A stretch of 64,000 nucleotides of DNA from an uncultured Candidatus Saccharibacteria bacterium (GCA_964615415.1 CAZTNI010000003.1:15235-79234); one strand, 5' to 3'. Counted from the stretch's first letter, positions 6,249-40,005 are shown. Program-made: numbers and translations. The notes: generated from the letters alone by a model not told the origin.

Positions 6249-6253
6249 AATCT

Positions 6254-6682
6254 ATGGGACGTATGTTTATACAAACTCTCCTGCGCTCAACGGTGATACG
6301 CTATGCAATTGCGGGCGCAACTGCCTCGATTCTTGATGTTGTCTTGCTCTACGTCTTTACTGAGTTTGCCGGAGTCTACTACCTTTTTTCAGCAGTGTTA
6401 GGTACCACCATTTCTTTTTTTGCACGATTCCTTTTGCAAAAACTGTTTGCGTTTCGAAATCGTTCGGTACGCGTGTTGCCAAGACAAATTGCATTATATG
6501 GGCTTCTATACATAGGAGCTACTCTTGCCACGTTAAGTCTGCTCTATGTATTTACTGAGGTGGTAGGGTGGTGGTACATCGCTTCGCAAGTTGCTGCTAT
6601 ACTAGCTGTTGCATCCGTAAGTTTTTTTATATACCGCTACGTTGTCTTTCCTGCCACTCATGCGCAACCTATTCAGCACTAA
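6254..6682 (+). CDS. GtrA-family small membrane protein (polyprenyl-phosphate-sugar translocation-associated)
   Basis: 142 aa with 4 predicted TM segments. GtrA signature IRYAIAGATASILDVVLLYVFTE...FFARFLLQKLFAFRN. Confidence 0.7.
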   Translation: MGRMFIQTLLRSTVIRYAIAGATASILDVVLLYVFTEFAGVYYLFSAVLGTTISFFARFLLQKLFAFRNRSVRVLPRQIALYGLLYIGATLATLSLLYVFTEVVGWWYIASQVAAILAVASVSFFIYRYVVFPATHAQPIQH

Positions 6683-8072
6683 CGTTTTTCGTATAAGTGT
6701 GGGCATCTTTTTGCTCGCGTTTCTTGCACGAGTTTTACTTTTTGCTATCGATTATCGTGCAAGTAATTATGACCTACGCGCCACTATTGTTGGTGACGAC
6801 GGGTACTATCAGATAACAGAAGGGATATTGTCGGGTAAGGGCTTTAGTGGAGACCCTACTCCTCCGTACGATCCAAACCCATTGCGTACCCCAGGGTATC
6901 CGTATTTTGCCGCTTTGTTGCTCGCAATAACGGGCTCGTACTGGGCGACGATTGTGGTGCAAATGCTTGTGGGGAGTGGTACCGCAGTACTTGCCTTCTT
7001 GCTTGGGCGACGTCTCCTTGGCTCACTTTCATGGTCTGCTGCTATAGGTGTGTTTATGGCACTTGAGCCGTACCATGTGCAGTTTTCTTTTATCTTCTAT
7101 ACAGAAACGTTATTTATTTTCTGTTTCTTGCTATTTGCTTGGCAGTTTGTGCGGTATATCGACCGCCCTTCATTGCAGAATATTTTTTTTGCAGGAGGAC
7201 TCTTGGGTATTGCAACACTTGTTAAAACCACGCCACAGTTTTTACCCCTCCTCCTTGTGCCGTTAGTGCTTTGGCATTTTCGTCGTAATCTGCGAGTAGG
7301 TATGGTACACGCAATGGTGTTTGGTGCAGTATTTCTACTCGTGCTCGCGCCATGGATGTACCGTAACTACCAAACCTTTGGTGTTGTTGGCATGACCGCA
7401 CAGCCAGCCTATAACCTTATTATCTACCTTGTGCCTTCAGTATTGGCTGTAGAGGGAGGGTATCCGATAGGAGAAAGCACCTTTGTTAAAGACAACAACA
7501 TTGATGAAAATGACATTACGCTCGCCACTGCTCAGCGATACAAAGATCAAGCGATTGATATTCTTACGCAGCATCCGGTTGGTATATTCAAAGTTACCCT
7601 TATTAGCATATTCACATTCTTTGCGCATGACGGTATGCTCACCGTCTTGCAGCATGCGGGCTATATACCCGCTACAAAACTTTCTCAACCTGCAGCAGTG
7701 TTGCTCGTAACTAATCCAGGACTGTTGGTTAAAGAAGTCGCGGCCCGATTAATGGGGCCAGAGGGTTTAATTGTTTTTTGGCGCTTGGTAAACCTTGCTA
7801 TTGGAGTGTTGTTTGTAGTGGGGGCGTGCATGGTTGTGTTTCGAAAAAAACACGCAGCGGTATGGATCTTCAGTCTAGTCCTGGTTGCGTATTTTGTTGC
7901 TACTACGCCAATAAATGGTCTCGGTGTCAATGCTCGGTTCCGTATGCCGGTTGAGCCGTTTATATTGGCTGTGGCAGCTTTGCCGGCCATTGTGGTATGG
8001 CGACGCTTAAGGCATACTGGGGGGCGCCATATACCGCATGAACAAACTCTCGATAGTCATCCCTTGCTATAA
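6660..8072 (+). CDS. Polytopic membrane glycosyltransferase with GT-C fold (GT39/PMT- or ArnT/GT83-like)
   Basis: ATG at 6660 (the track start at 6642 is TTG). At least 11 hydrophobic segments. The N-terminal loop DYRASNYDL...[18 protein letters not shown]...PGYPYF resembles the PMT_2/ArnT first periplasmic loop. It is flanked by GtrA and a Dpm1-like GT2. Confidence 0.55.
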
Positions 8073-9540
8073 CGAACGCGCGACCGTAGTAGAGCTATTG
8101 CAAAAAGTACTTGCTGTCTCTTTGCCGAATGGTTGGGAGAAAGAAGTTATTGTGGTGGATGATGCATCTCAAGACGGCACGCGAGATATCCTTGTTGCTG
8201 CGAATCTGCCTGTAAAACTTTTTTTACAGGGGGAAAATGCCGGAAAAGGCGCTGCCTTGCGTCGAGGTTTTGCAGAAGTAACAGGCACGCATGTTCTTAT
8301 TCAAGATGCGGATCTTGAATATGATCCCCAAGACATTCCTGCACTCTTGCGCGCACTGACGCCACAGACACAAGTGGTGTATGGATCGCGCAATTTGCAT
8401 GTACACAAGCGCAAAGGGTTTCTTATTCCACGCATAGGAGTGTGGTTTATAACCAAGCTCATAAATACTCTCTACTGGGTACGACTTACCGATGTGTGGA
8501 CCTGTTACAAGCTATTCCCAGCAAAAGAGGCCTACTTATTTCAAGCAGGGAAGTTCGATTCAGAGCTCCTGTTTACTGCGGCACTTTTGCGTAAAAAATA
8601 TAAAATAGCTGAAGTTCCTATCGCACATTATCCTCGCGATGCGGCGCATGGTAAAAAAATTCGCTATCGCGACGGTGTGTCAGCAATTATCAAAATAGTT
8701 CTCGATTTCCTTGCACATATGCGCTCGCCTGAGGCGTACACAGCGCAAGATGTTTCGAAGTTTCTTATTGCAAAGTATCCAAAAGATGCGCAAGGAAGAG
8801 TGCTTGCGATGCCTGCTGCCTCACTTCAATCCTTTGATGATGAACATCAGAGCGGCATTAACTGGTTGAAGTCTTTTTTAAAGCAGTTTCCGACCCTTTA
8901 CTACGCCATTTGGCATGTGTTCTGTCCGGCATTGATGGTTGTGAACGGCCCAAAACGTATTTTTACATATAGAGAACGCGGAGGGCTCCTCCTTGATGTG
9001 GGTTCTGGTCCTGAGCGTATAGGCAAAGAATTTATAAACATAGACGTAGTGCCGTTTCCGCAAGTTGATGTGGTGGCAGATGCACACAGATTGCCATTTA
9101 AAGATGGAGTGGCAGATGCAGTGGTAAGTGAGTCTGTGTTGGAACACGTTGCGGATGCCCAGGCGGTTGCAAATGAAATGGTGCGGGTGCTCAAGCCGGG
9201 CGGCATACTGTACACGAGTATTCCGTTTATCCACCCGTTCCATGCGTCGCCAGACGATTTTAATCGTCTTACGGTAAGCGGTCTTAAGCACGTGTTCCGT
9301 GACCTGGAGATTATTGAAAGCGGGGTGCGGTCAGGCCCGTGGAGTGCATTTCTTTTATTCTTTGCGTACTGGCTCGGGATCCTATTTTCATTTGGGTCTG
9401 AAAAAGTGGCACCATTCTTGGCGCATATCTTCATGCTTATACTCGGACCGCTCAAGTTTCTTGATATATTGTTTGTATACTTGCCTGGTACGGAAGCGGT
9501 TGCAGCTCATGTGTATGTCATTGGGCGGAAGCGAATGTAA
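8038..9540 (+). CDS. GT2 polyprenyl-phosphate sugar synthase (Dpm1/GtrB-like) fused to a C-terminal class I SAM methyltransferase domain
   Basis: N-terminus [14 protein letters not shown]...[12 protein letters not shown]...[10 protein letters not shown]-terminal half [12 protein letters not shown]...[25 protein letters not shown] (Methyltransf_11-like), followed by hydrophobic segments. Confidence 0.65.
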
Positions 9541-10485
9541 ATGAAAAAAGTAGTATTGCTGGAACACGATGGCGGCGAGCTCGCTAATCAGTTGTGGAAT
9601 TACATAAGCGTGTATGCGTATGCGCTTGAGCGTGGCTACACGTGCGAAAATTGGTCGTTTTTTGAATATCCTGATCATTTTGCCCGTAAACAAGAAGGGC
9701 GAATAATCAGATATCTTTTTGTGCCGTGGTTTAGAGGTTTTACGAAGCGCCGGAGTGCGGTGCGCCGCCGTGTGGCCCGCAAGTTGTACAAACTACTTGT
9801 CTCTAACCCTATGCATGTTCTTTCTCGTCGGGTTGTATATTCGACCGAAGTTGCGGGTGCTGCGTATTACTTGCCGCCAACGGGAGAGGCAAGCGCGCAT
9901 TTGTCCCGTTTGGAAAACTCAAAAGGTCCGATATATCTCGCACAAGTAAGTGGCGCGGTATATCGCAACCCAGACGGTATCATGAAGCATCGAGAAAAAA
10001 TTATAGAAGCGTTTCGTCCTGCTTCAGACATTACATCTACTGTAACGAAAACGACTGAGGCGCTTCGTGCTCGATATACGCACGTGGTGGGTGTGCATAT
10101 TCGTCAGGGAGACTACACAACATTTAAGGGAGGAAAATATTTTATTGAACAACGGCGCGTGCGCCAGATTTTGGATCAATATTTGCTTGAACGGAACCTC
10201 TCGGCGAATGAGGCCTGCTTTTTCATCGCGTCTGATGGGAAAATTGATGAATCATTATTTAATGGTCTTGCTATTCATGTAAGTAAAGCTAGTGCTGGAG
10301 AAGATCTTTTTACCCTTGCAGCGTGCGATGCAGTTATTGGCTCAGACTCTACCTTTGGTCACTTTGCTGCCTACTACGGCAATGTGCCCCATATTGTTAT
10401 GAAAAAAGAGCAAATGGATTGGGGATACTATCAGGGTAAAAATACCTATTTTGTAAATACATACCTCACTATTATGCAGTTCTAG
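9541..10485 (+). CDS. GT11-like glycosyltransferase (putative alpha-1,2-fucosyltransferase)
   Basis: N-terminus VVLLEHDGGELANQLWNY resembles the GT11 GGLGNQMFQY motif. HIRQGDY matches the GT11 HxRRGDY motif. ATG immediately follows the upstream stop. Confidence 0.45.
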   Translation: MKKVVLLEHDGGELANQLWNYISVYAYALERGYTCENWSFFEYPDHFARKQEGRIIRYLFVPWFRGFTKRRSAVRRRVARKLYKLLVSNPMHVLSRRVVYSTEVAGAAYYLPPTGEASAHLSRLENSKGPIYLAQVSGAVYRNPDGIMKHREKIIEAFRPASDITSTVTKTTEALRARYTHVVGVHIRQGDYTTFKGGKYFIEQRRVRQILDQYLLERNLSANEACFFIASDGKIDESLFNGLAIHVSKASAGEDLFTLAACDAVIGSDSTFGHFAAYYGNVPHIVMKKEQMDWGYYQGKNTYFVNTYLTIMQF

Positions 10486-12659: not shown

Positions 12660-12680
12660 TAGCGGGAGTATATAGGGTCC

Positions 12681-13520: not shown

Positions 13521-14117
13521 TTATTGCAACCGTTGTCGCAATAAGTTGCGTATTTCAAGTATGTCCAGCGGAATAGGGTCAGACGCTATGTAACCAAGCG
13601 CAGGATACGTTTCGAGACGGTCGACCTCTCCTACAAGTTCTTTGACGGTTTCGGCGAGAGGTTGTGTATCGATCGTGCAGGAGTCAGGGAAGAGTAGCCA
13701 GTCAATCTGGGGTGCGTGTAATCGCGCCGCTGCCAGAGTGCGACGAACGTGTGGTGCGTGTGTCACTATTCCTACACGGCTATATATTCCCAATCCCTGC
13801 AAGATCGCAAGACCCTCGATAATGTTTTCGCCCGTGTTGCTTGATTTGGTCTCAAGTACCATATCCTGTTCGGGGACCCCTTTTAAAAGCAGGTGATCGC
13901 GGAATGCCTCGGCTTCTGAGCCGGTAATCGTGCCGGTGAGTCTGCCTCGGCCCCCGAGCAATATCAACTTTTTTCGATACGATCTGTATAATTCTGCAGC
14001 TTTGTCAGCGATAGCAAAATCATCACGACCGAACACGAAAAAAATGTCAGGTGAGTCTTTGCTTGTTCCTATAGACAAGTAGTCCCAAAGTCTTTGAATT
14101 TCTTGCGGGTGTTCCAT
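13521..14117 (-). CDS. DUF218/YdcF-family protein (SanA/ElyC-like)
   Basis: 198 aa. Motifs ...FVFGRDDFAIADKAAELY...LILLGGRGRLTGTITGSEAE...NTGENI are typical of the DUF218 fold. Confidence 0.6.
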   Translation of the reverse strand: MEHPQEIQRLWDYLSIGTSKDSPDIFFVFGRDDFAIADKAAELYRSYRKKLILLGGRGRLTGTITGSEAEAFRDHLLLKGVPEQDMVLETKSSNTGENIIEGLAILQGLGIYSRVGIVTHAPHVRRTLAAARLHAPQIDWLLFPDSCTIDTQPLAETVKELVGEVDRLETYPALGYIASDPIPLDILEIRNLLRQRLQ

Positions 14118-14167
14118 TTAATTTCCTTTGTACAGAGCCAAACTAACAACACCCTACCACGCGAGCT

Positions 14168-15079
14168 TTACCAAGGAAAGATAGTACGGAACGGATTGCG
14201 TATATACATTTTTAAATACGGACCTTCCTTACTGTTAAGGTTTTGGAATGCCACAGACCGATGGCCAAGTTTTTTAAGGAAAGGGATACGTGCCCATATA
14301 CGGTCAGGAATGTTGCGTAGAATAGGCTTAAACCAGCGTAAAATGCGATATAGCTCCATGTACGCCATATCCTTTGTTGAGGCACGTTTGCGCATGTCTT
14401 GGCGTGCTTTAGCGTAGTATCCATAGAACTCGTCCTTGCGGGCGGTCGACATTGCTGAAGGGAGCTTGCGGTAAGCACCCAGGATGGTATTGAGGTGGTA
14501 GAGCTTTGCCTCGAAGAAGAATTTGCGCCACAATCCAGCGTCGAAAGCCCAAGGGTATTCCTCGTCAAATTTGCCCCCTGTGCGTTCCCATAATGAGCGG
14601 CGCCAAAAGGTCGACTCGTGCTGTATTGCCCACGGCACACCGAGTAGGTGTTCATACAAATCTTTTCGCACTGGGATAACGTCGGCTAACACACTGTCGC
14701 GGTCCATAATAAGACCAATCCCGGTGAGCCACTCTATTTCTTTTTTTTGTGTAAAAACTTTTGCGACTGTAAAAAGGCTGCGATGCACCAGTGGATTTTT
14801 ATCGGTAAGAGTTGCAATGATGTCTCCTGTTGATTTTGCAAGACCGTAGTTAAGGGCGTAAATAGGAGAGCTCTTAGGGCCATGAGGCAGCTGCTCGCAC
14901 ACCGCAAGACGATCTTTATATTTTTGAATTATGTCCCAGCTGCCGTCAGTTGAGTTGTCGTCCACGACAATACACTCCAAGTTTGGGTAGCCTTGGTTGA
15001 TGACTGACTCGATTGTTTCTGCAATGTAGTCCTTGCGGTTAAAGCAAGGAATGGCCACCGTAATTTTTGGGTAGTCCAT
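14168..15079 (-). CDS. Glycosyltransferase family 2
   Basis: ITVAIPCFNRKDYIAETIESVINQGYPNLECIVVDDNSTDGS. A paralog of the CDS at 18918-19835. Confidence 0.7.
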   Translation of the reverse strand: MDYPKITVAIPCFNRKDYIAETIESVINQGYPNLECIVVDDNSTDGSWDIIQKYKDRLAVCEQLPHGPKSSPIYALNYGLAKSTGDIIATLTDKNPLVHRSLFTVAKVFTQKKEIEWLTGIGLIMDRDSVLADVIPVRKDLYEHLLGVPWAIQHESTFWRRSLWERTGGKFDEEYPWAFDAGLWRKFFFEAKLYHLNTILGAYRKLPSAMSTARKDEFYGYYAKARQDMRKRASTKDMAYMELYRILRWFKPILRNIPDRIWARIPFLKKLGHRSVAFQNLNSKEGPYLKMYIRNPFRTIFPW

Positions 15080-15092
15080 GAGAGTATGTAAG

Positions 15093-16418
15093 CTACTTTT
15101 CTGGAGCGCCTACTTGAATTACTTTAACCCAATCTTGTTTCGGAATATAGCGCCACGGGTCGATAACCACCGATCCCTTAGGGAATTGCATCTTTGCAAA
15201 TTCAGGGTGCTTGGTGCCAATGAAAAAGACGCTCGGCTCCCATTCCGGAGTTTCGCCACCATCGACAAACGGGTCATAGATAGTTACGTCGTGGCCCATC
15301 TCCTCGATAATATTTTTAAGAAGAATAGAAGGGCTGCCGGTCGTTATGTTTGTTTCAGGCTTAAATGCCTTCCCAAGAATTACTTTCGGAAGGTTGCGAT
15401 GTTGGAGCATTAATGTAGCAAGCCACTCTGTCTGTTTTTCGCGCGCGGTCATCAAGGCGTCAAAAAAGTCGTACGAGAGGTCAAGTTTACGCGAGAGCCA
15501 CGACATAGCGATGTTGTCGCGTGGGTGGCAGCCGCCGCCATCGCCCATACCTGCGCCGAGGTACTTTGGGCTGATAAGGCGCGTGGTAGCGAGCTTCATT
15601 GCGTCGGTAATAGCATCTACGTCCATAGTGCCACCTAGTTTGTGACAGATTTCCATCATCACGTTTGCGTACACAATCTTCATGCCAATAAACGTGTTGT
15701 AGCCAACTTTAATCAGTTCGGCGTTCTCGAGAGTGGTGCGGTAAAACGGTGCATTGTGGAGTGTTTTATAAAACTTCTCCATCACCTTTGCGGCGTTATT
15801 ATCAACAACACCAAAGAGTACAAATTCTGGGTTAAGGAAGTCGCGCATGGTGGTGCCCATGGCAATAAAGAATGGGTTGTAGCAGAGTTTTACGTGCTTG
15901 TTGATGACAGGGAGGATCTGGTTTTTGATGGTGCCCGGAAGAACGGTAGAGATAATCACCACAATTTTATCCTCGCCGGTGCGAGCGATAGCGGCCGAGA
16001 GCTCTTTCATGCCCGACACGAGATGAGCATAGTTAAAGTCGACACGCTCCTGCGGGATACGCGTCGTGCCTTCAAACTTCTCTTCGTGTGGGGTTTGGAT
16101 AGGAACAAAAATAATTTCAGAATGTTTTACAACTTCGTCAATAGAGCCGAACTTGAGGTTGCTGTTGTGGAGGTATGGCTCGATAGGTTCCTCGCCGTCG
16201 GGGCCTGTTTCGCGATAGTTAATCGTCTTCTTCTGCATGCGCGCCGGGTTGATGTCGTAGCCCATAACATCGTGACCTTTCATGTCGATAGCAAGGGCGC
16301 AGGGAAGGCCGAGTTTTCCTATGCCGATAAAGCCTACACGCATTTTGTCAGTATTAGCAGCCGTTTGAGGGGCTTGAGAAGGAAGAACTGGAGCTTCAGG
16401 GATGTTGAGTTTTGCCAT
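15093..16418 (-). CDS. Nucleotide-sugar dehydrogenase (UDP-glucose/GDP-mannose/UDP-ManNAc dehydrogenase family)
   Basis: Rossmann motif MRVGFIGIGKLG after a 25-aa N-terminal extension (alternative start near 16343). Catalytic-Cys motif GGGCHPRDN. Full three-domain length, 441 aa. Confidence 0.8.
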   Translation of the reverse strand: MAKLNIPEAPVLPSQAPQTAANTDKMRVGFIGIGKLGLPCALAIDMKGHDVMGYDINPARMQKKTINYRETGPDGEEPIEPYLHNSNLKFGSIDEVVKHSEIIFVPIQTPHEEKFEGTTRIPQERVDFNYAHLVSGMKELSAAIARTGEDKIVVIISTVLPGTIKNQILPVINKHVKLCYNPFFIAMGTTMRDFLNPEFVLFGVVDNNAAKVMEKFYKTLHNAPFYRTTLENAELIKVGYNTFIGMKIVYANVMMEICHKLGGTMDVDAITDAMKLATTRLISPKYLGAGMGDGGGCHPRDNIAMSWLSRKLDLSYDFFDALMTAREKQTEWLATLMLQHRNLPKVILGKAFKPETNITTGSPSILLKNIIEEMGHDVTIYDPFVDGGETPEWEPSVFFIGTKHPEFAKMQFPKGSVVIDPWRYIPKQDWVKVIQVGAPEK

Positions 16419-16494
16419 ATGTAAATTTTATGATCGCTATTGTAGCAATAAGGTACTAACAAGGTAAGTTGACACGTAATTTAAGCGGTGTTCT

Positions 16495-17805
16495 TTATTT
16501 TCTGCCAATCGCTCGATATGTAATATGCTCGGCGAAGTCCTCTTTTTTAAACATGCCCCACGGGTCAATGACCGTTTTAGGTGCCTCGGTTTTATTAAGA
16601 ATCAACACTAATTCGCTAAAGAGGGTATCTTTGTTAGAAATAAATAGGATGTCGGCAGAAGTAACAAGCTCGGATAAAGAGTCGTGATAGGTTGCTTTGT
16701 TGTTAAATACACGCCGTGCTTCTTCAGTGCCCAAGGGTTCAAATATGCTCAATGCGTAACCTTTTTTTACTAATAGCTCAGCGATAGTTCGAGCCTGAGA
16801 GTCTTCCGTGAGAGTAGTTTTTGGTTTGTAGCTGATGCCGAGCATGCCAATTTTTTTTGTCTGAATTTTTTTTGCATGTTCAGTAATTACCTCGCTCATT
16901 CGTTCCGGGATAGTTTCGTTTGTAGAATGAGTCGCAAGCGCAACAGGTGTATTGACGCCGCGTTTGCGAGCCATATTTGCAAATGCAAAATTGTCTCGTG
17001 GAAAACAGGGACCGCCGTACCCTAATCCTGCTTTTAAATACGCAGAGCCTATACGTTTATCTTTCCCCAAGGCGCCGGTGATACTGTCTACATTTGCGTG
17101 GGGGATTTGCTCTGCGAGCATGCTGAGTGTGTTCGCAAAGGTAATTTTCATGGTGACGTAAGAGTTGAGTGCTATCTTTGCCAACTCAACGCTTTCGACA
17201 GACATGCGCTCGGGAATGATGGTGGGGTAGACTGATGTGTAAATGGTTGCGAGGGTGTCTCCGGATTTTTTATCGAACTCTCCTAAAAATATAAAATCTG
17301 GCTTTTCAAGATTTTCAATAACATCTCCAATTGCGATAAGGCTTGGGTTGTAACAATAGCCGAAATCAACCCCACATATTTTTCCTGAAGCGCTCTCAAG
17401 AGCTGGAATAATATACTCTCGTGAATCTCCGGGAAGTACGGTACTTACAACGCATACCAGATGATAGGTGTCTTTCTTTTGCAGTGCTTTTCCTATCTTT
17501 TTGCATGCCTCTACAACATAGTCTACTGAGAACGATCCGTCTTTCTTACTCGGTGTCGGAACAATAATAAATGTTGCATCAGTAAGTGAAACCGCTTCTG
17601 TAATATTTGTTGTCGCTAGGATTCTTTCTTTGTGTTCAGCTATATATTCCGCTAAGCGTGTTTCTTCAACAGGAGGACGGCCTACCGCAAGAGCTTTTAC
17701 TTTTTTTGCATCAATATCCGTACCAACAAGAGTATGTCCCTTGCTCGCATAAAATGCTGTATAACAGCTTCCTAGTTTGCCGAGTCCTACGACAGATAGT
17801 TTCAT
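16495..17805 (-). CDS. Nucleotide-sugar dehydrogenase (UDP-glucose 6-dehydrogenase-like)
   Basis: MKLSVVGLGKLGSCYTAFYASKGHTLVGTDID; catalytic motif GYGGPCFPRDN; 436 aa. The ATG overlaps the stop of the upstream gene (ATGA). Confidence 0.8.
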   Translation of the reverse strand: MKLSVVGLGKLGSCYTAFYASKGHTLVGTDIDAKKVKALAVGRPPVEETRLAEYIAEHKERILATTNITEAVSLTDATFIIVPTPSKKDGSFSVDYVVEACKKIGKALQKKDTYHLVCVVSTVLPGDSREYIIPALESASGKICGVDFGYCYNPSLIAIGDVIENLEKPDFIFLGEFDKKSGDTLATIYTSVYPTIIPERMSVESVELAKIALNSYVTMKITFANTLSMLAEQIPHANVDSITGALGKDKRIGSAYLKAGLGYGGPCFPRDNFAFANMARKRGVNTPVALATHSTNETIPERMSEVITEHAKKIQTKKIGMLGISYKPKTTLTEDSQARTIAELLVKKGYALSIFEPLGTEEARRVFNNKATYHDSLSELVTSADILFISNKDTLFSELVLILNKTEAPKTVIDPWGMFKKEDFAEHITYRAIGRK

Positions 17806-18857
17806 GCGTGTGCGGTAAGTTTGATAGCGGCTGCTTTTTTCTCAACAAGAGGACGAATCCAGTTATAGGTCTGCGTAAGTCCATACTGTAGAGGGAGTGA
17901 TGGAGCCCAGCTAAGTTTTTCTTTAATAAGGCGGTTGTCTGAGTTGCGGCCGCGCACACCAAGGGGGCCAGGGATGTGGTTAATAGCCACCGTGTTGCCG
18001 CCGCTAATCTGCACCGCCATATGTACAAGTTGGTTGATGGTTACCATCTCGTCGGAGCCAATGTTTACCGGTCCGGTAAAATTTGATTGCATGAGGCGCT
18101 CGACACCCTCAAGACATTCGTCGATGTAGAGGAATGAGCGGGTTTGGTTACCATCACCCCAAATTTCCAGATAGGGGAAAGATTGCGTACGAGTTCCGTT
18201 TTGCCAAACCTCCACAGTGCTGCCGAGCTGAGATTCTGCTACTTTGCGACAAATTGCGGCAGGAGCTTTTTCGCGGCCACCAGTCCATGTGCCTTCCGGT
18301 CCAAAAATGTTGTGAAAGCGTGCAATGCGAACAGCAAGGTTTTTGTTACGAGCATAGGCGAGGTAAATACGCTCGCTAAAAATCTTCTCCCATCCGTATT
18401 CAGAGTCTGGTGCAGCGGGGTAGGCAGAGTCCTCGGCACAGTTTGGGTTGTTTGGGTCCATCTGATTGCGTTCTGGGTAGATACACGCAGAGGAAGAGTA
18501 AAAAATAGTTCCGACGCCTACTTTTGCCGCCTGGTCGACTACATTTAAATTGATGGTTGCCGAATTGTGCATGATGTCGGCATCGTTCGCGCCTGTGAAG
18601 ATGAATCCTGCTCCTCCCATGTCGGCTGCAAGTTGGTAAATACGGTCAAAACGACGATCCACCGCCTTGTCTACTACGGCGCGGTCGCGCAAGTCGCCGA
18701 TAATAAACTCGTCCGCAGCAGTAGCAGAGTATTCCGGATATTTAAGATCTACACCACGTACCCAATAGCCCTCTTTTTTGAGACGTTTCACCAAATGACT
18801 CCCAATAAATCCTCCCGCTCCGCAGACAAGTGCTGTTTTTCTTTCGGTGTTCGGCAT
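17802..18857 (-). CDS. GDP-mannose 3,5-epimerase-like NAD-dependent epimerase (SDR family)
   Basis: ATG at 18857 (the track start at 18899 is TTG). GxxGxxG motif VCGAGGFIGSH. The segment RFHNIFGPEGTWTGGREKAPAAICRK closely matches the plant/bacterial GME signature FHNIYGPFGTWKGGREKAPAAFCRK. Confidence 0.6.
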   Translation of the reverse strand: MPNTERKTALVCGAGGFIGSHLVKRLKKEGYWVRGVDLKYPEYSATAADEFIIGDLRDRAVVDKAVDRRFDRIYQLAADMGGAGFIFTGANDADIMHNSATINLNVVDQAAKVGVGTIFYSSSACIYPERNQMDPNNPNCAEDSAYPAAPDSEYGWEKIFSERIYLAYARNKNLAVRIARFHNIFGPEGTWTGGREKAPAAICRKVAESQLGSTVEVWQNGTRTQSFPYLEIWGDGNQTRSFLYIDECLEGVERLMQSNFTGPVNIGSDEMVTINQLVHMAVQISGGNTVAINHIPGPLGVRGRNSDNRLIKEKLSWAPSLPLQYGLTQTYNWIRPLVEKKAAAIKLTAHA

Positions 18858-18917
18858 ACTAATTGCTCGCCATTGTATATGGTTTACCTGTTTAAACAAG
18901 AGTAGAGGGTCTTGTGG

Positions 18918-19835
18918 TTACGCTGGAAATATTGTCCTAAATGGATTTCTTTTATATCGAATTAAAGTACCTCGATCGTCTTTGAGTGTAGAAAACTTTA
19001 TAGCGTCCTGGCTAAATATCTTTAAAAATGGGAGTTTACTCCAGAGAGGATCTGGAATGTTGCGCAGTAAAGGATGTAATTTCCCTAATACTCGATATAT
19101 AAAAGCAAGCAATAGGTGGTTTTTTGGTGCAGATGCACGCATGACGCTGCGAGCAGCTTTAGCGTATTGCATAAATTCTGCTCTGCGAGCAGTGCTCATT
19201 GCGGCAGAACTCTTACGATAAGCTCCCACTATCGTATTAAGAAATACAAGTTTTCCGTTGTGTGGGAAAAAACGTCCACACCACAACCCGACATCAAACG
19301 CGTTTGGATACGCTTCATCAAATGATCCTCCGCTTCTCTCCCATAAAGAACGTCGGAAGAAAGCGGATTCCTGTTGAATATTTCCGGATTCATTTCCTAA
19401 ATATCCCCAATAATCTTTTCTGTAAGGAACGACATGGATAACCTTGCCGTCCCCGTCGATGGTAAGACCAATGCCCGCTACCCATTCCACATCTTGAAAT
19501 GTATTAAACACTTCTGCAATTGTAAAAAGACTCTTAGGCATTAATACATTTTTTGCATTAAGCCAGGTCATAATTTCACCTGTTGATTTTGAAAAGCCGT
19601 AATTGATTGCAGGAACAGGAGTTTTCCGATCTCCTGGAAGTTGTCCGCAGAAAGTAAGTCGATCTTTGTATTTTTGGATAATTTCCCAACTACCATCGGT
19701 CGAATTGTCGTCTATAACGATGTATTCAAGGTTGGGGTAACCTTGGTTAAGCACCGACTCAATAGTTTCAGCAATGTACTGCGCGCGGTTAAAACATTGC
19801 GTAACAATGGTTATTTTGGGGTATTGGTTCTCCAT
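18918..19835 (-). CDS. Glycosyltransferase family 2 (paralog of 14168-15079)
   Basis: [53 protein letters not shown]; similarity to the other GT2 extends over the whole length. Confidence 0.7.
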   Translation of the reverse strand: [305 protein letters not shown]

Positions 19836-20620
19836 AAGTAGAGGGGAATAGGTACAACGTAACTGTTTCTAAATACTTCAGCAACTTTAAAGTTAAAGTC
19901 TCGGTCGGCACCACGGCCCATAAACGACGGCCATTCTCGATCTGTGAGCTTTCTAAATTGTACCTTGTCTATCACTTCGCGTTTAAACAGAGGACTGTTG
20001 CCCGCTCCGGGGAACGGTGCAAGCGAACCGAAAAAGAATTTATTAATAACAGGTAGGCGTTTGTAGTGAAATGGAATGAGACGGTTCAGGGAAGGGGAAA
20101 TTTTTGCGACGAGCCCTTTTGTTTTTTGCGATAGTGTATAGAGTTCGTTTGGAGTGATGGTGGGTCCTGTTGGCGCGGTGTCGCCTATGGTATGTACGAG
20201 AGCGTCGTCATATTCTTGCCATGCGGTGAGGAGGTGTGTTGCATTAAGTTCCGTAAGTAATCGATACTGCGTCTCGATCCTGTTTAACAGTGACACGTCG
20301 TCTGCGTCTTGGAAGGTAATGAGTTCTCCTCGTGCAATGGCGAATCCTGCGTTCCTGGCAGAGTAGCCAGCATTTACATTCCGCTGCAGTTTGGAGTCAA
20401 AGCGCTCGGGGTCATCTGGTGCTTGTATAACTCGGATGCGCGGATCGCTCTCCTGTAATTGCTCTACAAGACGAGTAACGCTCTGGTCGGTACTGTTGTC
20501 GTCGACAACAATAATCTCCAGGTTTTTATATGTCTGTTTTTGAATAGATTCTATCGCTCGCGGCAGTGTCGCAAGTGCTTTGTGGGTTGGGATAATGACC
20601 GAGATTAGAGGTTCTTTCAT
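19811..20620 (-). CDS. Glycosyltransferase family 2
   Basis: [42 protein letters not shown]; a DxD region FQDADD. Confidence 0.7.
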   Translation of the reverse strand: [269 protein letters not shown]

Positions 20621-21777
20621 AGCTTTACTACATCATCTAAAAACGTGCTGTAAGCAGCGGTAAACGTTTCTTTGGTGTGGTGCGTACGGACCCACTGCCA
20701 CACTTCTTTTGCTTGCTGCTCCAGTTTTAGAGGATCTGTCGATGCAACCATTCGCGCCGTATTCATGATTGTTTCGATGGTGGGTGTGATGATATGTACT
20801 GGAGCATCTTCCGCAATTCCGGTCTCTGTAGTAACAAACGGAATAACGCCGGCGTGCATTGCCTGGATAACCGCGCCCGAGGTTCCCTCTGAGGCGGCTG
20901 GGTATATAAGTGTAGTGCATTGATTTGCGATAGAAAGAAACGTTGCATCTCCCACCATCATTTCACCTTCTTTTGTAAGCTGGGGGCGAGGGTAACGATG
21001 AATATTTGGTAGTGCAAGTTCCGTTGCGTACGCGCGGGCGAATTCTTCTTCAAATGCTGCCGGACCGATTATGTGAAGCGTATACTCTGGAAGTTGTGCA
21101 AATGCTTCGAGTATAAGATCTAGTCCTTTGAGTACTGCTCCTCCGCCTCCGAACCACAAAAAATGAGTTCGTGCTTTTGTAAAATCTTTTTCTGTAGGAA
21201 AGTCGAACTGTGTAGTGACGGAAATCGGGATAGGGAAAATAGGTTTTCCATACGCAGCATAGGTTGCGTGTACGGTTTTGTTGCCGAACCCAGCAAGAAA
21301 ATCTGCGTGGTGTGCGTTGTGTGTAGAAGGTTCCGTGCGACGCGAAGAAAGTGTAATTTTTCGGCGAGCATGCAAAGCGACAAGTCGACCCTGCTCTGCT
21401 TTGTTTTGAAATGTCGGGTCTGATGAAGTGATCTGTAAAATTTTTTTACATGTAGGAGGCAGTTGGGTGTGTAGTCGTTCCAAATTTTGCATCACGTCGA
21501 CACATGCTGCATATGGTTTCCGCGGAGTGAAGGTGGTATTTTTAGAGCTTATAACATCTACAGCGTAGCCCCGCTCAGTAAGTAGGCGAGCAATTTCCGT
21601 ACATTCCCAATAATTGCTATGCGGGTCGGTGAAAAATTCTCCAGGCGCTTGAGTAAAAGGACCTGTCATATAGGAAAGGAGAACATCGCCTTTCTTTTTC
21701 CCTTGATACGGGAGGTGCACAACACCAAACAATTTGTTTGATATTTTATTTTTGTATGCCCGTAGTGTATTACGCAT
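20617..21777 (-). CDS. Glycosyltransferase family 4 (GT-B fold)
   Basis: C-terminal GT1/GT4 region ...PAASEGTSGAVIQAMHAGVIPFVT. The start is moved to ATG 21777 to limit overlap with the asnB 3' end, and is uncertain. Confidence 0.55.
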   Translation of the reverse strand: MRNTLRAYKNKISNKLFGVVHLPYQGKKKGDVLLSYMTGPFTQAPGEFFTDPHSNYWECTEIARLLTERGYAVDVISSKNTTFTPRKPYAACVDVMQNLERLHTQLPPTCKKILQITSSDPTFQNKAEQGRLVALHARRKITLSSRRTEPSTHNAHHADFLAGFGNKTVHATYAAYGKPIFPIPISVTTQFDFPTEKDFTKARTHFLWFGGGGAVLKGLDLILEAFAQLPEYTLHIIGPAAFEEEFARAYATELALPNIHRYPRPQLTKEGEMMVGDATFLSIANQCTTLIYPAASEGTSGAVIQAMHAGVIPFVTTETGIAEDAPVHIITPTIETIMNTARMVASTDPLKLEQQAKEVWQWVRTHHTKETFTAAYSTFLDDVVKL

Positions 21778-23533
21778 GGGAGTGTTGTGAGAGCCAAATT
21801 TCAAGACAGAGCAATACCCATAGACGGTAATAGCCTTTTGCGTCTTGAGAGTTATACACGTCTTGTGTAAACCGTTGTAGTTCTTTTTCGCGCAGAAAAG
21901 CATACACCTGCGCTCCTTTGCCTAATTTTTTCTCTACGTAGGCACGCATCTGTGGTTCTTGGAGCCAGAGGCGTACCGGGGCGCCGAAGCCTTGTTTTTT
22001 ACGATGTACGAATTCTTTGGGCATAATCTCCTCCAAGATATCTTTAAGAATTATTTTGCCCGTAGAGTTCTTTACTTTGTATTCTTCTGGCAAATTAAAG
22101 ACATACTCTGCAAGTTTATAGTCGAGGAAGGGTGCGCGTACTTCAAGTCCGTGCATCATGCTTGTCTGGTCTGCTTTCGACAGGAGCTGTCCTGGTAAGT
22201 ATGTAGTAAGGTCGAAGTAGTTCATCTTTTGCATGCCGTTACCAGGGAAGTGTGCTGCCAGTTGGCCGATGTTGCCGTCTGTAGCGTGTGCGCGATCTAT
22301 AAACAGTTTTCGGCGCATTGAAAGAGGGAATACCGTTGCGTTGCGCAAATGTTCTTTGTATTGGTTCGAAAATAATATGTTTTTTAATCGTACAATTTTG
22401 CGCGTGTTGAAGTAGCTCCAGTACCATCCATAGCCTAAAAATAGCTCGTCTGCGCCATCGCCGGAGAGTGCTACTTTGACATGCTTTGCAGCCATCTCTG
22501 AAAGCATGTGCTGTGCGAAGTCGGAAGAGTCGGCATGTGGTTCGTCAAAGTAGGCGAGTGTCTTTTCGAGCTCGCCTATAAGGTCGCCGGTCACTTGGAG
22601 TGTGTGGTGGTCGGTGCCAATAGCATCTGAAGCTTGTTTTGCAAATGGAAGTTCGTTGATATATTCACCGTAGCCGACGGAAAAAGTTTTAAGCGGATGG
22701 GTAGAAATACGTTGTGCATACGCGGTAACAAGAGTAGAGTCGACACCGCCAGAAAGGAATGATCCGACCTCGACGTCGGCGATCATGCGCTTACGTATCG
22801 ATTCGCTAAACAGACGTTTGATCTCTTCTTTTGCCTCATCATAAGAAGGATGAATAGGAGAGTTAGGAAGATCCCAATAGCGGCGCGACGTAAGTGTGCC
22901 GTTTATCGCAACAGCGTAGTGTGCCGGCAAAATAACGTGTACGTTTTTGTAGACGCTGCGCCAGGGTGGCATGTACATAAGAGTAAGGTAGTCATTGATA
23001 GCGTTAAGGTCGAGTTCACCTTGCACTCCCATAGCTAAGAGAGCTTTAATTTCTGAAGCAATTAAAATATTTCCTGCTGCATCATGGGTCCAATAGAGCG
23101 GCTTTTTGCCAAAGCGATCGCGCGCTGCGTACATGAGTTGCTTTTCGTTATCCCATAGCGCGAACGCAAACATGCCGTCTAAGTGCTGCGCACAATCCTC
23201 CCCGTATTCTATATAGGCCTTAAGAATTACTTCTGTGTCTGATTGTGTGCGGAAGTGATGCCCTTTCTGCTCCATCTCCTTGCGGAGTTCTTTATAGTTA
23301 TAAATCTCGCCATTAAACACTACGGCAATGTCGCGCTCGGTGTCTTTCATTGGCTGCGTACCACCGGTAATGTCGATGATTGAAAGGCGAGTGTGTCCAA
23401 GGACACATGCTGCAAAACGCATGGTGCCGCTGCCATCCGGGCCACGATGAGAAAGAGCCCGGAGTCCTGCCTCAAGCGTAGGAGAAGACACGTCTGGGGC
23501 GCGCTTTCCGGTTATGGCAAATATGCCGCACAT
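21770..23533 (-). CDS. asnB: Asparagine synthetase (glutamine-hydrolysing) family amidotransferase
   Basis: Begins MCGIFAITGKR (Ntn Cys2 glutaminase). The synthetase domain has SGGVDST; 587 aa. Confidence 0.8.
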   Translation of the reverse strand: MCGIFAITGKRAPDVSSPTLEAGLRALSHRGPDGSGTMRFAACVLGHTRLSIIDITGGTQPMKDTERDIAVVFNGEIYNYKELRKEMEQKGHHFRTQSDTEVILKAYIEYGEDCAQHLDGMFAFALWDNEKQLMYAARDRFGKKPLYWTHDAAGNILIASEIKALLAMGVQGELDLNAINDYLTLMYMPPWRSVYKNVHVILPAHYAVAINGTLTSRRYWDLPNSPIHPSYDEAKEEIKRLFSESIRKRMIADVEVGSFLSGGVDSTLVTAYAQRISTHPLKTFSVGYGEYINELPFAKQASDAIGTDHHTLQVTGDLIGELEKTLAYFDEPHADSSDFAQHMLSEMAAKHVKVALSGDGADELFLGYGWYWSYFNTRKIVRLKNILFSNQYKEHLRNATVFPLSMRRKLFIDRAHATDGNIGQLAAHFPGNGMQKMNYFDLTTYLPGQLLSKADQTSMMHGLEVRAPFLDYKLAEYVFNLPEEYKVKNSTGKIILKDILEEIMPKEFVHRKKQGFGAPVRLWLQEPQMRAYVEKKLGKGAQVYAFLREKELQRFTQDVYNSQDAKGYYRLWVLLCLEIWLSQHSHA

Positions 23534-23545
23534 AATGCCTATATA

Positions 23546-24712
23546 TTATCGTTTCGAGAACGTTTCGACGAGTGCGCGAATCTCTTCTTTAGTTAGTTCC
23601 GGATTGTTTCCAAAGTAAAATCCAAGTTCGTGTATCGCGGTTGCGTTAGGGAGATCATAAGTACGAGTGTTGTGTTTTTTATGGAAAGGCTGTGCGGTCA
23701 TGTTGCCACCGACAATAGGACGTATTTCGATCCCTGCGTGATGTGCTTTGTGCATGTAATGAGTTTTTAACTCCTTTGTTTTAGCGATCAGAGGAAACGC
23801 AAAGTTAGACATCAAAGACATTTTATTCACCAAAGGGAAGAAGTCTTTGTTTTTATATATCTTCTCGAGTGCTTTATAATTTTTCTCTCTGGTTTTGATT
23901 GTCTTGGAAAGGTATTGCAATTGGTTCACACCCAAAAAACCCTGGATCTCCATAGGACGAAGGTTGTACCCCAAGTCATAAAAAGTGTATTTTGAATAAA
24001 AATCTTCAATACCGTGTTGTGTGCGCACCAGCACTTGTTCTTCGGTAGTGAGATGTCTGTCCCAGCCATGCGAGCGCACCATGCGCAATGCTCTGTTTAG
24101 TTCAGGATCGTCAGTACACACAGCTCCTCCTTCAATCGTAGACATATGATGTCCTACAAAGAAGGAAAACGTAGATGCAAAACCAAAGTTTCCCAATTTT
24201 TCGCCTTTATATTCTGAACCGAGTCCTTCGCAATTGTCTTCAATCAAAAAAATGCTGTTCTTTTTGCAGAAACTCTGAATAGCGCGCATGTCGTCTGCAA
24301 AACCAAGAAGGTTAGTAAGAAAAAGGCAGGAAAATTTTTCTTTTTTATACGCTTCTGCAAGTATTTTAGGTGAGACGTTAAGAGTTTTTTCGCTTACATC
24401 AAGTGGGATAGCCTGGAGACCAAGCTGTATGAGCGGCATAACGTTTGTAGACCAGGTGATGCCGGAAAACGCCACTTTCTGCCCCTTGGTGAGCCTCCCT
24501 GTGTTAATCAGTGCCTGTATAAGGGCTAGGTTTGCAGAGCTGCCGCTGTTGTACATGACCGTATAGGTCCTGCCTTGCCATTTTGAAAATTGTTTTTCAA
24601 ACAATGCGCAATAATCACCAATACTTAATTGCTTCGCTTTTCGGATAAAACTAATAAGCTCTCTCTTGGTGTGAGCCTCGTTAAAGAAGGTTGATTTAAT
24701 AAGTTTAATCAT
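23546..24712 (-). CDS. DegT/DnrJ/EryC1/StrS-family PLP-dependent sugar aminotransferase
   Basis: 388 aa. N-terminus ...FEKQFSKWQGRTYTVMYNSGSSANLALIQAL; a C-terminus typical of the DegT family. Confidence 0.8.
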   Translation of the reverse strand: MIKLIKSTFFNEAHTKRELISFIRKAKQLSIGDYCALFEKQFSKWQGRTYTVMYNSGSSANLALIQALINTGRLTKGQKVAFSGITWSTNVMPLIQLGLQAIPLDVSEKTLNVSPKILAEAYKKEKFSCLFLTNLLGFADDMRAIQSFCKKNSIFLIEDNCEGLGSEYKGEKLGNFGFASTFSFFVGHHMSTIEGGAVCTDDPELNRALRMVRSHGWDRHLTTEEQVLVRTQHGIEDFYSKYTFYDLGYNLRPMEIQGFLGVNQLQYLSKTIKTREKNYKALEKIYKNKDFFPLVNKMSLMSNFAFPLIAKTKELKTHYMHKAHHAGIEIRPIVGGNMTAQPFHKKHNTRTYDLPNATAIHELGFYFGNNPELTKEEIRALVETFSKR

Positions 24713-24715
24713 GTG

Positions 24716-25693
24716 TTAGGAAAATTTTGAAATGTCTGCTATCCAGGCGTTCAACAGAGTAAGCTCCTCTGGTGGCACAAACTTCTTCTCGACAAAGGCT
24801 GTATACACAGCGACCATCTGTTCTTTTGCAGACAGTCCCGGTTGTGCTGCTGCCGCTGCAGTTTGTACCATATCTTGCGCGTAAAGATAAATAGGCATCT
24901 CCGCCTCAAAATCTTTCAGATACTCATGAGGATTGCGCTCTTGTCGCACAAGAGGCGATGTAAAACCCAGTGTGTATCCTAGATTGTTGAGGATCGGCTG
25001 TGCGACAAAACTACGCATAATGTCGCTCACGCGAGGGTGTACAAACGCAGGTAAGTATAAGAGAGGAAATACCTCTTTTCTAAACGTAGTGCTTTGGCAA
25101 TTGAAGGGGCACCATGTGCCTGGTGCCAACGTAATAGGTTCTCGCTGTGAGAATGTAACCAGTTTATTTTTGGTGAGTCTAAATATGGCGTCAACGTCGG
25201 TGTCTTGGTCTGCTAAATGCTGCCACACTCCTACGCGTGTCTGTTCTGTTTTTTCGGTAGAGGCGTCCTCGGCTGTTACAAGCGGAAGGGGATACCCGCG
25301 AGGCCATATATCTGTAGCGCCAAAGTGGCGATACATATTAACGAACGGGCTGTTGCTTAGTTGCGTGTAGCTGCCATCAAACGCAGGAATAGCAAAGCGT
25401 GGGTAGGGAATATTATCGTCATCGATCTGAGTGATGCTGTCTGCTCCTTGGCGCATTGCTTCTAAAAAACCAACCATTGCACGTGCGGGAGTATTCCAAG
25501 GCAGATGTGTAATAAGAGCGTAGGGAAGCGATTCTTGCGTTGTTGGTCCGAAGTAGGTGGTCGAGGCAAGGTTCCAGTCTGCGGGTGTTTTTTTGTCGCC
25601 AATCACTATTCGATGCCACTCTGGTAGCGTTGCAAGTAGGGTAACTGCCTCGGTTGGAGGGTTGATGGTTGTGGTTATGAGAAATTTTTTCAT
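24716..25693 (-). CDS. Hypothetical protein, DUF288/STELLO-like putative glycosyltransferase
   Basis: N-terminal LITTTINPPTEA motif and a later DDDN (DXD) motif resemble STELLO/DUF288 nucleotide-sugar transferases. Tentative. Confidence 0.4.
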   Translation of the reverse strand: MKKFLITTTINPPTEAVTLLATLPEWHRIVIGDKKTPADWNLASTTYFGPTTQESLPYALITHLPWNTPARAMVGFLEAMRQGADSITQIDDDNIPYPRFAIPAFDGSYTQLSNSPFVNMYRHFGATDIWPRGYPLPLVTAEDASTEKTEQTRVGVWQHLADQDTDVDAIFRLTKNKLVTFSQREPITLAPGTWCPFNCQSTTFRKEVFPLLYLPAFVHPRVSDIMRSFVAQPILNNLGYTLGFTSPLVRQERNPHEYLKDFEAEMPIYLYAQDMVQTAAAAAQPGLSAKEQMVAVYTAFVEKKFVPPEELTLLNAWIADISKFS

Positions 25694-26640: not shown

Positions 26641-26643
26641 ATT

Positions 26644-27525: not shown

Positions 27526-27531
27526 CGAGGT

Positions 27532-28800: not shown

Positions 28801-28802
28801 AA

Positions 28803-29618: not shown

Positions 29619-29620
29619 GG

Positions 29621-31022
<1,402 letters not shown>

Positions 31023-31110
31023 ATAAACCTATAACTTAAGTGCAACTAGTAGAAGTGTCAAAAAGTTACTGAGTTGAGTAGTGCGGGGGTTACAAGCTAT
31101 ACTCGGCACT

Positions 31111-39738: not shown

Positions 39739-40005
39739 TTAAAATCGTTCATCTGTTTCGAGCGCATCTGACTCTATTGAGTCAAGTTTGCCGTTTTCAG
39801 TATTGTTTTGCTGGTTCTGTGCGCGAGCCTGGCCTCCTTTGCGACCCGCTTCGCGAGCCTCAGCAGAGTCAAACTCGTGTGCAGTACCTTTCTCGTGAGC
39901 AGCTTTGCCACCCTGAGAGGCAATTTCGCGACGCTTCTCTTCATCCATAGAAGCGAAGCCTCGTTTGCTGCTATTGTTTTCGTTGTCTTCAAAGTTTTGC
40001 CACAT
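39739..40005 (-). CDS. KGG-repeat general stress protein (YciG/Con-10 family)
   Basis: ATG at 40005. Repeats SQGGKAAHEKG and GRKGGQA. Confidence 0.65.
   Translation of the reverse strand: MWQNFEDNENNSSKRGFASMDEEKRREIASQGGKAAHEKGTAHEFDSAEAREAGRKGGQARAQNQQNNTENGKLDSIESDALETDERF

Follow-up and report, generated by a model that had tools for sequence, protein, structure and literature searches.

A predicted three-component transmembrane glycosylation module in a glycan-assembly operon conserved across Paceibacterota

What does a small membrane glycosylation locus act upon when it is encoded in the same stretch of DNA as a giant, Thr-rich surface protein? The question arises at positions 6254-9540 of a 64,000-nucleotide stretch (hereafter, the window) deposited under the name of an uncultured Candidatus Saccharibacteria bacterium (GCA_964615415.1, CAZTNI010000003.1:15235-79234). 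Three genes lie there, encoding a small GtrA-family membrane protein, a polytopic glycosyltransferase (GT) of the GT-C fold and a protein with a GT2 domain of the polyprenyl-phosphate glycosyltransferase type. A first interpretation, made without database searches (the sequence-only reading), had taken this trio for a protein O-glycosylation system acting on the giant protein. We consider it probable that the trio is instead a multi-component ('three-component') transmembrane glycosylation module, set in a glycan-assembly operon that is conserved across Paceibacterota (Parcubacteria, in the candidate phyla radiation, CPR), and that it most likely acts on the glycan or glycolipid of the surrounding island.

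The region 6254-9540 contains three tightly packed open reading frames (ORFs), all in the same direction. The GtrA-family gene occupies 6254..6682 on the + strand (142 aa from ATG 6254; the public gene call, 6263-6682, gives 139 aa). The GT-C gene follows at 6699..8072 (+; 457 aa from GTG 6699); alternative starts exist upstream at ATG 6660 and TTG 6642, and public gene callers choose 6699. The product from 6699 is 100% identical to P0001, and the identical gene also occurs in a Logan metagenome contig and in one from NCBI. The third ORF, at 8038-9540 (+), encodes 500 aa in two parts, a GT2 (GT-A fold) polyprenyl-phosphate glycosyltransferase domain (8038..8742, residues 1 to ~235) and, fused to it, an S-adenosylmethionine (SAM)-dependent methyltransferase domain into which a hydrophobic helical hairpin is inserted (8845..9540). 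Gaps within the region measure 5-16 nt, with one 35-nt overlap and 0 nt to the following gene, so the trio is part of one tightly packed operon. From 709 to 10485 all gene boundaries overlap or abut, and the trio stands mid-operon, between GT4, methyltransferase and GT11-like genes. The contiguity described in the sequence-only reading therefore holds. The locus as a whole is a glycan island of ~34 kb and not a stand-alone trio.

Pfam and fold assignments agree with the identities first proposed for the three genes. The product of 6254-6682 matches the Pfam profile GtrA_DPMS_TM (E 3.2e-15) over profile positions 1-117 of 117, in a family that Pfam names GtrA/DPMS; at 139-142 aa it is a small GtrA-family membrane protein. 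The 500-aa protein matches Glycos_transf_2 (E 7.8e-27, residues 5-125). Its GT2 domain has its nearest solved relatives in the three solved classes of polyprenyl-phosphate glycosyltransferases, with PDB sequence matches to PfDPMS (6e-15), ArnC (5.5e-14) and GtrB (1.8e-8), and Foldseek retrieved ArnC (4.8e-15), GtrB (6.8e-13) and DPMS (1.7e-12). Its best NCBIfam match, AglJ (1.3e-22), falls far under the cut-off of that family. The motif D90-A-D92 is invariant in the homolog alignment. Judged by profile matches and predicted fold, the domain is of the polyprenyl-phosphate glycosyltransferase type (GtrB/CsbB/ArnC/DPMS-like).

The description of this protein as a Dpm1-like GT2 fits residues 1 to ~235, but it missed the SAM methyltransferase that makes up residues ~300 to 500. 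Matches to Methyltransf_11 (E 3.5e-14) and to other SAM-methyltransferase families cover residues ~306-397; this half is Rossmann-type, and its SAM motif D320-x-G-S-G-P is intact and invariant. The AlphaFold (AF2) model of the protein (pLDDT 86.4) places the hydrophobic hairpin (residues 434-478, nt 9337-9471; helices 434-451 and 457-478) between methyltransferase strands 423-432 and 491-498. Since the hairpin is inserted in the methyltransferase sheet, the predicted membrane anchor belongs to the methyltransferase and not to the GT2 domain. We had also considered the C-terminal hydrophobic segment as a GtrB-type transmembrane pair and rejected this, because the model shows a hairpin within the methyltransferase fold. 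Homologs of the fusion are abundant: the best 120 of >2,400 matches are full-length, share 53-81% identity and come from Patescibacteria wherever they are named. Among the named homologs in these best 120 no characterised GT2-methyltransferase fusion was found, and none of this kind is known to us. The linker at ~235-300 carries a CPxC...CxxH (zinc-ribbon-like) motif in most homologs; the window protein is ~20 residues shorter there and has no such motif.

The GT-C ORF matches PMT_2 (E 7.5e-12). Its AF2 model (pLDDT 91.5, pTM 0.90) retrieved, above noise, solely GT-C enzymes from the PDB with Foldseek, at TM-scores of 0.33-0.49 and sequence identities of 11-16%: STT3/PglB, ArnT, PimE, ALG9, GPI-MT-I, Pmt4, AftB, Emb and Pmt1-Pmt2. 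In an alignment of 33 family members, Asp34 is invariant; it lies 13 residues after the first transmembrane helix, in the window motif GDDGYY. E136, K176, R222, D311, R362 and R413 are also invariant. The protein thus combines a predicted polytopic GT-C fold with a conserved acidic residue in an extracytoplasmic loop. All named relatives are Patescibacteria (Paceibacterota and Candidatus Taylor-, Sung-, Kaiser- and Campbellbacteria), and the 33-sequence profile gave zero matches against all PDB sequences, even at E up to 10. By these searches, the family is Patescibacteria-restricted and has no sequence-detectable relative of solved structure.

Synteny was compared across 63 Patescibacteria loci, obtained from a scan of one genome per species in which ORFs were called and compared with the window proteins. 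A DPMS-like GT2 lies directly downstream of the GT-C, or is fused to it, in 44/63 loci (40/53 where at least 3 kb of downstream sequence is present), and the GT2 carries the methyltransferase fusion in 29/63. GtrA homologs were found within 6 kb of the GT-C gene in 43/63 loci, adjacent or fused in 18/63, and all three components occur within 6 kb in 33/63. The operon partners recur as well. Homologs of the GT4 enzymes GT4_c (within 6 kb) and GT4_b (within 7 kb) were detected in 43/63 and 41/63 loci, respectively, and GT11-like homologs in 26/63 (within 7 kb). Restricted to the 39 loci whose flanks extend at least 6 kb in both directions, the count is 33 for GT4 genes and 33 for a methyltransferase. 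The components are thus genetically linked and co-inherited.

Natural fusions, all confirmed with Pfam, tie the same activities together in other genomes. GtrA is joined to the GT-C in P0080 and L023, the GT2 to the GT-C in L032, and the same methyltransferase that follows the GT2 domain in the window is fused to the GT-C instead in P0073 and L009. Fusions with GT4 enzymes involve GtrA (GtrA+GT4 in L003, GT4+GtrA in L024) and the GT-C (GT-C+GT4 in P0094 and L054). Through these fusions the four activities are tied to one another as well as to the operon's cytoplasmic GT4 enzymes. Domain content, folds, synteny in the 63 loci and fusions therefore support the three-component logic of polyprenyl-phosphate-sugar synthase, GtrA and GT-C that had been proposed for the locus. 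Loci L016, L039, L057, L058 and L063, together with many 'Saccharibacteria' TPA loci, show the Paceibacterota-type cluster with the same synteny. For this reason, bulk titles of metagenome-assembled genomes such as 'uncultured Gammaproteobacteria' or 'Candidatus Saccharibacteria' are probably unreliable as taxonomic labels.

From homology, fold, synteny and fusions, we infer a mechanism in four steps. The GT2 domain would load one sugar from a nucleotide sugar onto polyprenyl phosphate at the cytoplasmic face. On the same face, the fused, hairpin-anchored methyltransferase would probably methylate either this lipid-linked sugar or a lipid-linked glycan made by the GT4 enzymes. The GtrA-family protein would then aid in holding or flipping the lipid-linked sugar, and the GT-C would move the sugar to an acceptor on the outer face; Asp34, located in the first outer loop, would probably serve as catalytic base.

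The acceptor of this last step is most likely a glycan or glycolipid that the co-operonic GT4, methyltransferase and GT11-like enzymes are predicted to build. The position of the trio mid-operon among GT4 genes, together with its fusions to GT4s in other genomes, indicates that it belongs to a glycan-assembly pathway. The island around it is consistent with this, as it contains Wzm, Wzt with a Wzt_C domain, Gmd, Fcl and a GT11 enzyme. There is precedent in characterised three-component systems, which modify lipoteichoic acid, wall teichoic acid, cell-wall polysaccharides and O antigens and whose GT-Cs in some cases contain PMT_2 (PMC8035078; PMC11127046).

Several observations weigh against this assignment. 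Only 2/63 loci have Wzm/Wzt genes within 10 kb of the GT-C (L022 and L037, where they stand immediately upstream of GtrA-GT-C-GT2), and the window contains no recognisable initiating phosphoglycosyl transferase. The conservation of the GT2-methyltransferase protein, at 53-81%, would suit a housekeeping glycoconjugate, general protein glycosylation included, equally with a polysaccharide side chain. The GT-C cannot be placed in any CAZy family, given the empty PDB profile search and Foldseek TM-scores that reach just 0.33-0.49. Finally, the fusions of GtrA to Leloir-type GT4 enzymes, along with its homology to the transmembrane domain of archaeal DPMS, suggest for GtrA a role as carrier-lipid-binding anchor that is no less plausible than one as flippase. 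It is also possible, although we doubt it, that GtrA, the CPR-specific GT-C and the DPMS/ArnC-like synthase with its fused, hairpin-anchored methyltransferase form a four-part module operating phylum-wide in Paceibacterota, in which the sugar would be methylated while on polyprenyl phosphate to give a lipid-linked methyl-sugar donor, and the GT-C would place this methyl-sugar on a conserved envelope glycoconjugate, or possibly on surface proteins, of these episymbionts. We know of no characterised example of a lipid-linked methyl-sugar donor.

The acceptor named in the sequence-only reading is the giant surface protein of 5,791 aa encoded at 46525..63900 (+). Its description as roughly one-quarter Ser/Thr was accurate (25.6% S+T, versus ~10-11% in housekeeping proteins of the window). 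Its gene was also said to be next to the trio, which is not so: it starts 36,985 bp downstream of the trio end, and the ~33 intervening genes comprise the remainder of the island, murB, secA, clpP, a cytidylyltransferase-like gene, a dsbD-like gene, obg, gatB and a helix-turn-helix (HTH) gene. In relatives, too, the neighbourhood shows no such link: an ORF of at least 1000 aa was found within +/-10 kb of the GT-C gene in 0/63 loci. The protein is rich in T, G, S, A and N (G 13.3%, A 11.5%), has a recurring module of ~50 residues and a single transmembrane segment at residues ~100-125, and matches nothing in Pfam other than LVIVD repeats and one Bact_surface_Ig-like domain. Runs of at least four S/T residues number 24, against 18.5 +/- 3.7 in shuffles, and only two 20-aa intervals reach 60% S+T+P. 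With Ser/Thr so evenly spread, there are no mucin-like or Pro/Thr linker tracts, and the composition looks like that of a beta-rich fibre and not like that of a mucin-like glycosylation tract. The N-terminus (46525-46900) consists of a cytoplasmic HTH-like segment followed by one transmembrane helix; its first ~47 residues share 36% identity (E 3e-9) with the N-terminus of an upstream 273-aa HTH_17 protein (45177-45998, +), so the two genes share an N-terminal module.

Because the PDB profile search was empty, assignment of the GT-C to GT39, GT83 or GT53 by sequence is impossible, and the model assigns the protein to the GT-C fold without separating these or other families. ArnT of GT83 gave no sequence-level match and only a modest fold match (5f15, E 5.4e-3, TM-score 0.35); Parcubacteria are reported to lack lipid A and lipopolysaccharide (LPS) (PMC5220378), a report made for the lineage and not for this genome. 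As for GT53, the protein has 457 aa and no C-terminal soluble domain, and its matches to Emb and AftA/AftB are weak (E 2e-2 to 2). It therefore does not qualify as a lipid A or arabinan transferase, the classes that the sequence-only reading had named as incompatible with its proposal. STT3/PglB of GT66 are the best fold matches (E 2e-4 to 1e-2, TMq 0.43-0.49), but Pfam STT3 is unmatched, and the alignment covers only the membrane core of targets that have 640-700 aa. An oligosaccharyltransferase (OST) was accordingly considered and rejected, as both the C-terminal domain and an STT3 profile match are lacking. The earlier assignment to the GT-C membrane transferases stands.

Modification of Ser/Thr in the distant giant protein is unlikely. 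As a broader proposal, the GT-C might be a PMT-like O-glycosyltransferase that transfers sugar from polyprenyl-phosphate-sugar to Ser/Thr of secreted proteins, the giant fibre among them, in the manner of actinobacterial Ppm1/Pmt; we regard this as unlikely. PMT_2 is matched by 33/33 aligned family members and PF02366 by 8/33 at E up to 1 (best 8.6e-10), NCBI names relatives 'glycosyltransferase family 39 protein', AglJ and PfDPMS figure among the best NCBIfam and PDB matches of the GT2 domain, and Pmt4 and Pmt1-Pmt2 appear among the fold matches. The module is conserved phylum-wide, as housekeeping systems are, and the giant protein is both Ser/Thr-rich and membrane-anchored outside the cell. 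However, the window GT-C fails the domain and motif tests specific to GT39. It matches PMT_2 and not PF02366, and PMT_4TMC is matched by none of the 33 family members. A 'DE' motif in loop 1 has been described as universal in Pmt homologues (PMC8698208), whereas the loop-1 motif here is G-[D/S/G]-D34-G-Y-Y, in which only the Asp is invariant and is followed by Gly. The profile search against PDB sequences found no match to any solved PMT, and by fold Pmt4 (9i5k) ranks 20th (E 1.5e-2, TM-score 0.41) and Pmt1-Pmt2 25th, both under STT3, ArnT, PimE and ALG9. In Listeria, GtlB and GttB are GT-Cs that glycosylate teichoic acids although they contain PMT_2 (PMC8035078); by this precedent, a PMT_2 match says nothing about a protein acceptor, and the labels 'PMT_2' or 'GT39' that Pfam and NCBI attach to such proteins are not evidence for protein O-mannosylation. 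Together with the distance of ~37 kb across housekeeping genes, the 0/63 loci with a large ORF, the dispersed Ser/Thr residues and the GT4 setting and fusions of the trio, this leaves O-glycosylation of the giant protein by the trio unsupported.

Two further explanations concern what happens around the trio, and as regards its immediate acceptor both are sub-cases of the glycan or glycolipid reading. A glycan might be built on a lipid carrier by GT4, GT2 and GT11 enzymes and exported by Wzm/Wzt, with the trio adding a branch, before a Wzy_C protein with C-terminal tetratricopeptide repeats (TPR) transfers it en bloc to surface proteins. We judge this unlikely. The Wzy_C-TPR membrane protein stands at the end of the island (32122..34401, +; Wzy_C E 9.6e-20 plus TPR families) and is the sole candidate ligase in the window, where no LCP ligase was recognised among the Pfam/NCBIfam assignments. 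Wzm and a Wzt with Wzt_C are present, and, as Parcubacteria are reported without lipid A and LPS (PMC5220378), a WaaL-type acceptor would be missing. Wzy_C-TPR homologs lie ~5 kb from the GT-C in L049 and L051. In Geobacillus and Paenibacillus, Wzm/Wzt-dependent O-glycosylation of S-layers (WsaB/WsfB) provides a precedent. However, the superfamily spans O-antigen ligases, O-oligosaccharyltransferases and polymerases, no O-oligosaccharyltransferase-specific family was matched, and the PDB sequence matches fall in the TPR part alone; the protein could be an O-oligosaccharyltransferase, a polymerase or a wall ligase. Moreover, TPR domains also accompany polysaccharide export proteins, a Wzy_C-TPR gene lies within 10 kb of the GT-C in only 3/63 loci, and neither an acceptor protein nor a sequon could be identified. 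Were this explanation true, the idea of a glycoprotein surface would survive through another enzyme, with the trio not itself modifying protein. The other possibility, likewise unlikely in our view, is that the operon makes a membrane glycolipid or lipoglycan as in mycobacterial phosphatidylinositol mannoside (PIM)/lipomannan (LM) synthesis, with GT4s glycosylating a lipid that is flipped and then extended by the GT-C from polyprenyl-phosphate-sugar. The conserved core of three or four GT4s plus GT2, GT-C and GtrA, in which no initiating phosphoglycosyl transferase, Wzx flippase or polymerase was recognised, would fit such a pathway, and strong phylum-wide conservation would suit a structural envelope lipid. 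PimE (9dm5) is among the GT-C fold matches, and GT4_c weakly matches glycolipid-forming GT4s (GlcN-PG synthase 1.9e-14, diacylglycerol glucosyltransferases). Nevertheless, every GT4 match lies far under family cut-offs, the PimE match is weak (TM-score 0.35), and genes for initiating enzymes may lie in another part of the genome.

The preferred reading, a three-component module that serves the glycan or glycolipid of its island, can be set beside known systems. Among the closest are those of Gram-positive bacteria (Listeria GtlA/GtcA/GtlB; Bacillus and Staphylococcus CsbB/GtcA/YfhO; Lactococcus CsdAB/CD/EF with CflA; PMC8035078), which have the same GT2 C55-P-sugar synthase and GtrA together with a GT-C in which one outer loop holds an acidic residue, share a monoderm envelope with the Paceibacterota module and, in GtlB and GttB, carry PMT_2 as the window GT-C does. 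One GtrA may serve several GT2/GT-C pairs in these bacteria, and the window has a second candidate pair at 10482-13445. Unlike theirs, the window GT2 has no C-terminal transmembrane helices of its own, the membrane hairpin being carried by the fused SAM methyltransferase; the genes lie inside a GT4 operon and are fused to GT4s in relatives; and the GT-C belongs to a family confined to Patescibacteria that has no sequence match to solved structures. The GtrA/GtrB/GtrC systems of Shigella and Salmonella phages and the GT136 pentofuranose systems (PMC11127046) follow the same logic of donor synthase, flippase and GT-C and are tied to ABC-transporter-exported glycans, as is the window module; GtrB is a top fold match of the GT2 domain. 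The window module departs from these systems in not being borne by a phage, in its order of genes (GtrA, GT-C, GT2, against A, B, C) and in its extra methyltransferase domain; moreover, production of LPS or O antigen has not been reported for its lineage.

Actinobacterial Ppm1/Pmt (GT39; PMC5882110, PMC8698208) likewise places a synthase and a GT-C on opposite membrane faces, and the window GT-C shares with Pmt a weak PMT/PMT_2 profile similarity and a conserved loop-1 Asp. It differs in having neither PMT_4TMC nor the 'DE' motif and in its size, 457 aa with small outer loops; nothing at the module indicates a protein acceptor. The actinobacterial pmt gene is not known to lie in a glycan operon, whereas the window GT-C is clustered with GT4s and fused to them in relatives. 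The Agl pathway of Haloferax volcanii (AglJ/G/I/E, the methyltransferase AglP and AglD/AglR/AglS; PMC3871713) shows the same mix of GT2-type lipid-phosphate glycosyltransferases, UDP-sugar dehydrogenase and SAM methyltransferase, and a separate lipid-phosphate-mannose branch (synthase, flippase helper and outside transferase) adds the last sugar after export, much as proposed for the trio. However, Agl is archaeal, dolichol-based and N-linked via the oligosaccharyltransferase AglB (PMC3871713); here there is no STT3/AglB homolog, the GT-C lacks the C-terminal OST domain, and the methyltransferase is fused to the synthase. Mycobacterial PIM/LM/lipoarabinomannan synthesis (the GT4s PimA/PimB, Ppm1, PimE and other GT-C mannosyltransferases) has the same succession of cytoplasmic GT4 steps and extracytoplasmic GT-C steps fed by polyprenyl-phosphate-sugar. 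The window GT-C shows no detectable sequence homology to PimE, and the module has in addition a GtrA-family protein and a fused methyltransferase.

The kind of system, with its three-component glycosylation logic, is thus already known. New are the Patescibacteria-specific GT-C family, the strongly conserved synthase-methyltransferase fusion with its hairpin anchor and the rich set of fusions to GT4 enzymes. In the literature searched, we found no paper linking Patescibacteria with GtrA and glycosyltransferase, and nothing specific on CPR cell envelopes and giant proteins. The cell envelope of the candidate phyla radiation is essentially uncharacterised (PMC5220378). Since CPR bacteria live attached to hosts, surface glycoconjugates probably mediate the contact, and a module that recurs in dozens of Paceibacterota genomes offers a concrete, testable entry to the biochemistry of CPR envelope glycans.

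The remaining genes of the operon are likewise on the + strand. A GT4 cut by the window edge (3-686) is followed by a GT4-UGDH fusion (709-2679), a GT4 (2676-3572), a methyltransferase (3569-4198), a protein without assigned function (4195-5136) and a further GT4 (5133-6248), assigned with Pfam where a function is given. The fusion protein combines a GT4 part with a UDP-glucose/GDP-mannose dehydrogenase of which the N-terminal and central domains are present but the C-terminal UDP-binding domain is not; relatives of the fusion protein in other loci consist of the GT4 part alone. The last gene of the operon, at 9541..10485, begins one base past the stop codon of the GT2-methyltransferase gene and encodes a GT11-like (fucosyltransferase-like) protein (Glyco_transf_11, E 9.6e-6). 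Locus L001 has identical sequence that extends beyond the window start; its positions 1-1994 carry a gene for a TrwB/TraG-like coupling protein and one for a lamin-tail-domain (LTD) protein, directly upstream of the glycan operon.

Immediately past the operon, an orphan polytopic protein of 725 aa is encoded on the - strand (10482-12659), with no match in Pfam or the PDB, and a second ArnC/PgfS-like GT2 on the + strand (12681-13445; NCBIfam ArnC 2e-9, PgfS 8.7e-9). A word-indexed homolog search with the 725-aa protein found only itself; an exhaustive search gave a family of 105 representatives, in which a GYFxxDDF motif that follows the first transmembrane region is invariant. Alignment of this family with the GT-C family by hhalign reached a probability of only 27%, and homologs lie near the trio in 8/63 loci. 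Being divergent to the ArnC/PgfS-like GT2, the 725-aa protein may form with it a second pair of donor synthase and GT-C.

The remainder of the island (13521..32109), as assigned with Pfam and NCBIfam, encodes a DUF218 protein, three GT2 enzymes, two UDP-sugar dehydrogenases, an epimerase, a GT4, AsnB, DegT, a STELLO-like protein, GT11, Wzt, Wzm, Fcl, a NUDIX protein and Gmd. Wzt (27532-28800, -) is TagH/Wzt-like (8e-63) with a Wzt_C domain (E 5.6e-8), and Wzm occupies 28803-29618; GDP-fucose genes are represented by Fcl (2.7e-78) and Gmd (1e-135). On this gene content, the ~34 kb are best described as a predicted surface-glycan island of the ABC-transporter type. By analogy with O-antigen systems, Wzt_C and the several methyltransferases of the island suggest an exported glycan with a capped, possibly methylated, chain end. 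Among the housekeeping genes beyond the island, the window also encodes a KGG stress-repeat protein (39739-40050, -), a DUF1653 protein (40900-41109, +) and a membrane protein of the Phage_holin_4_2 family (42378-42713, +; E 2e-29).

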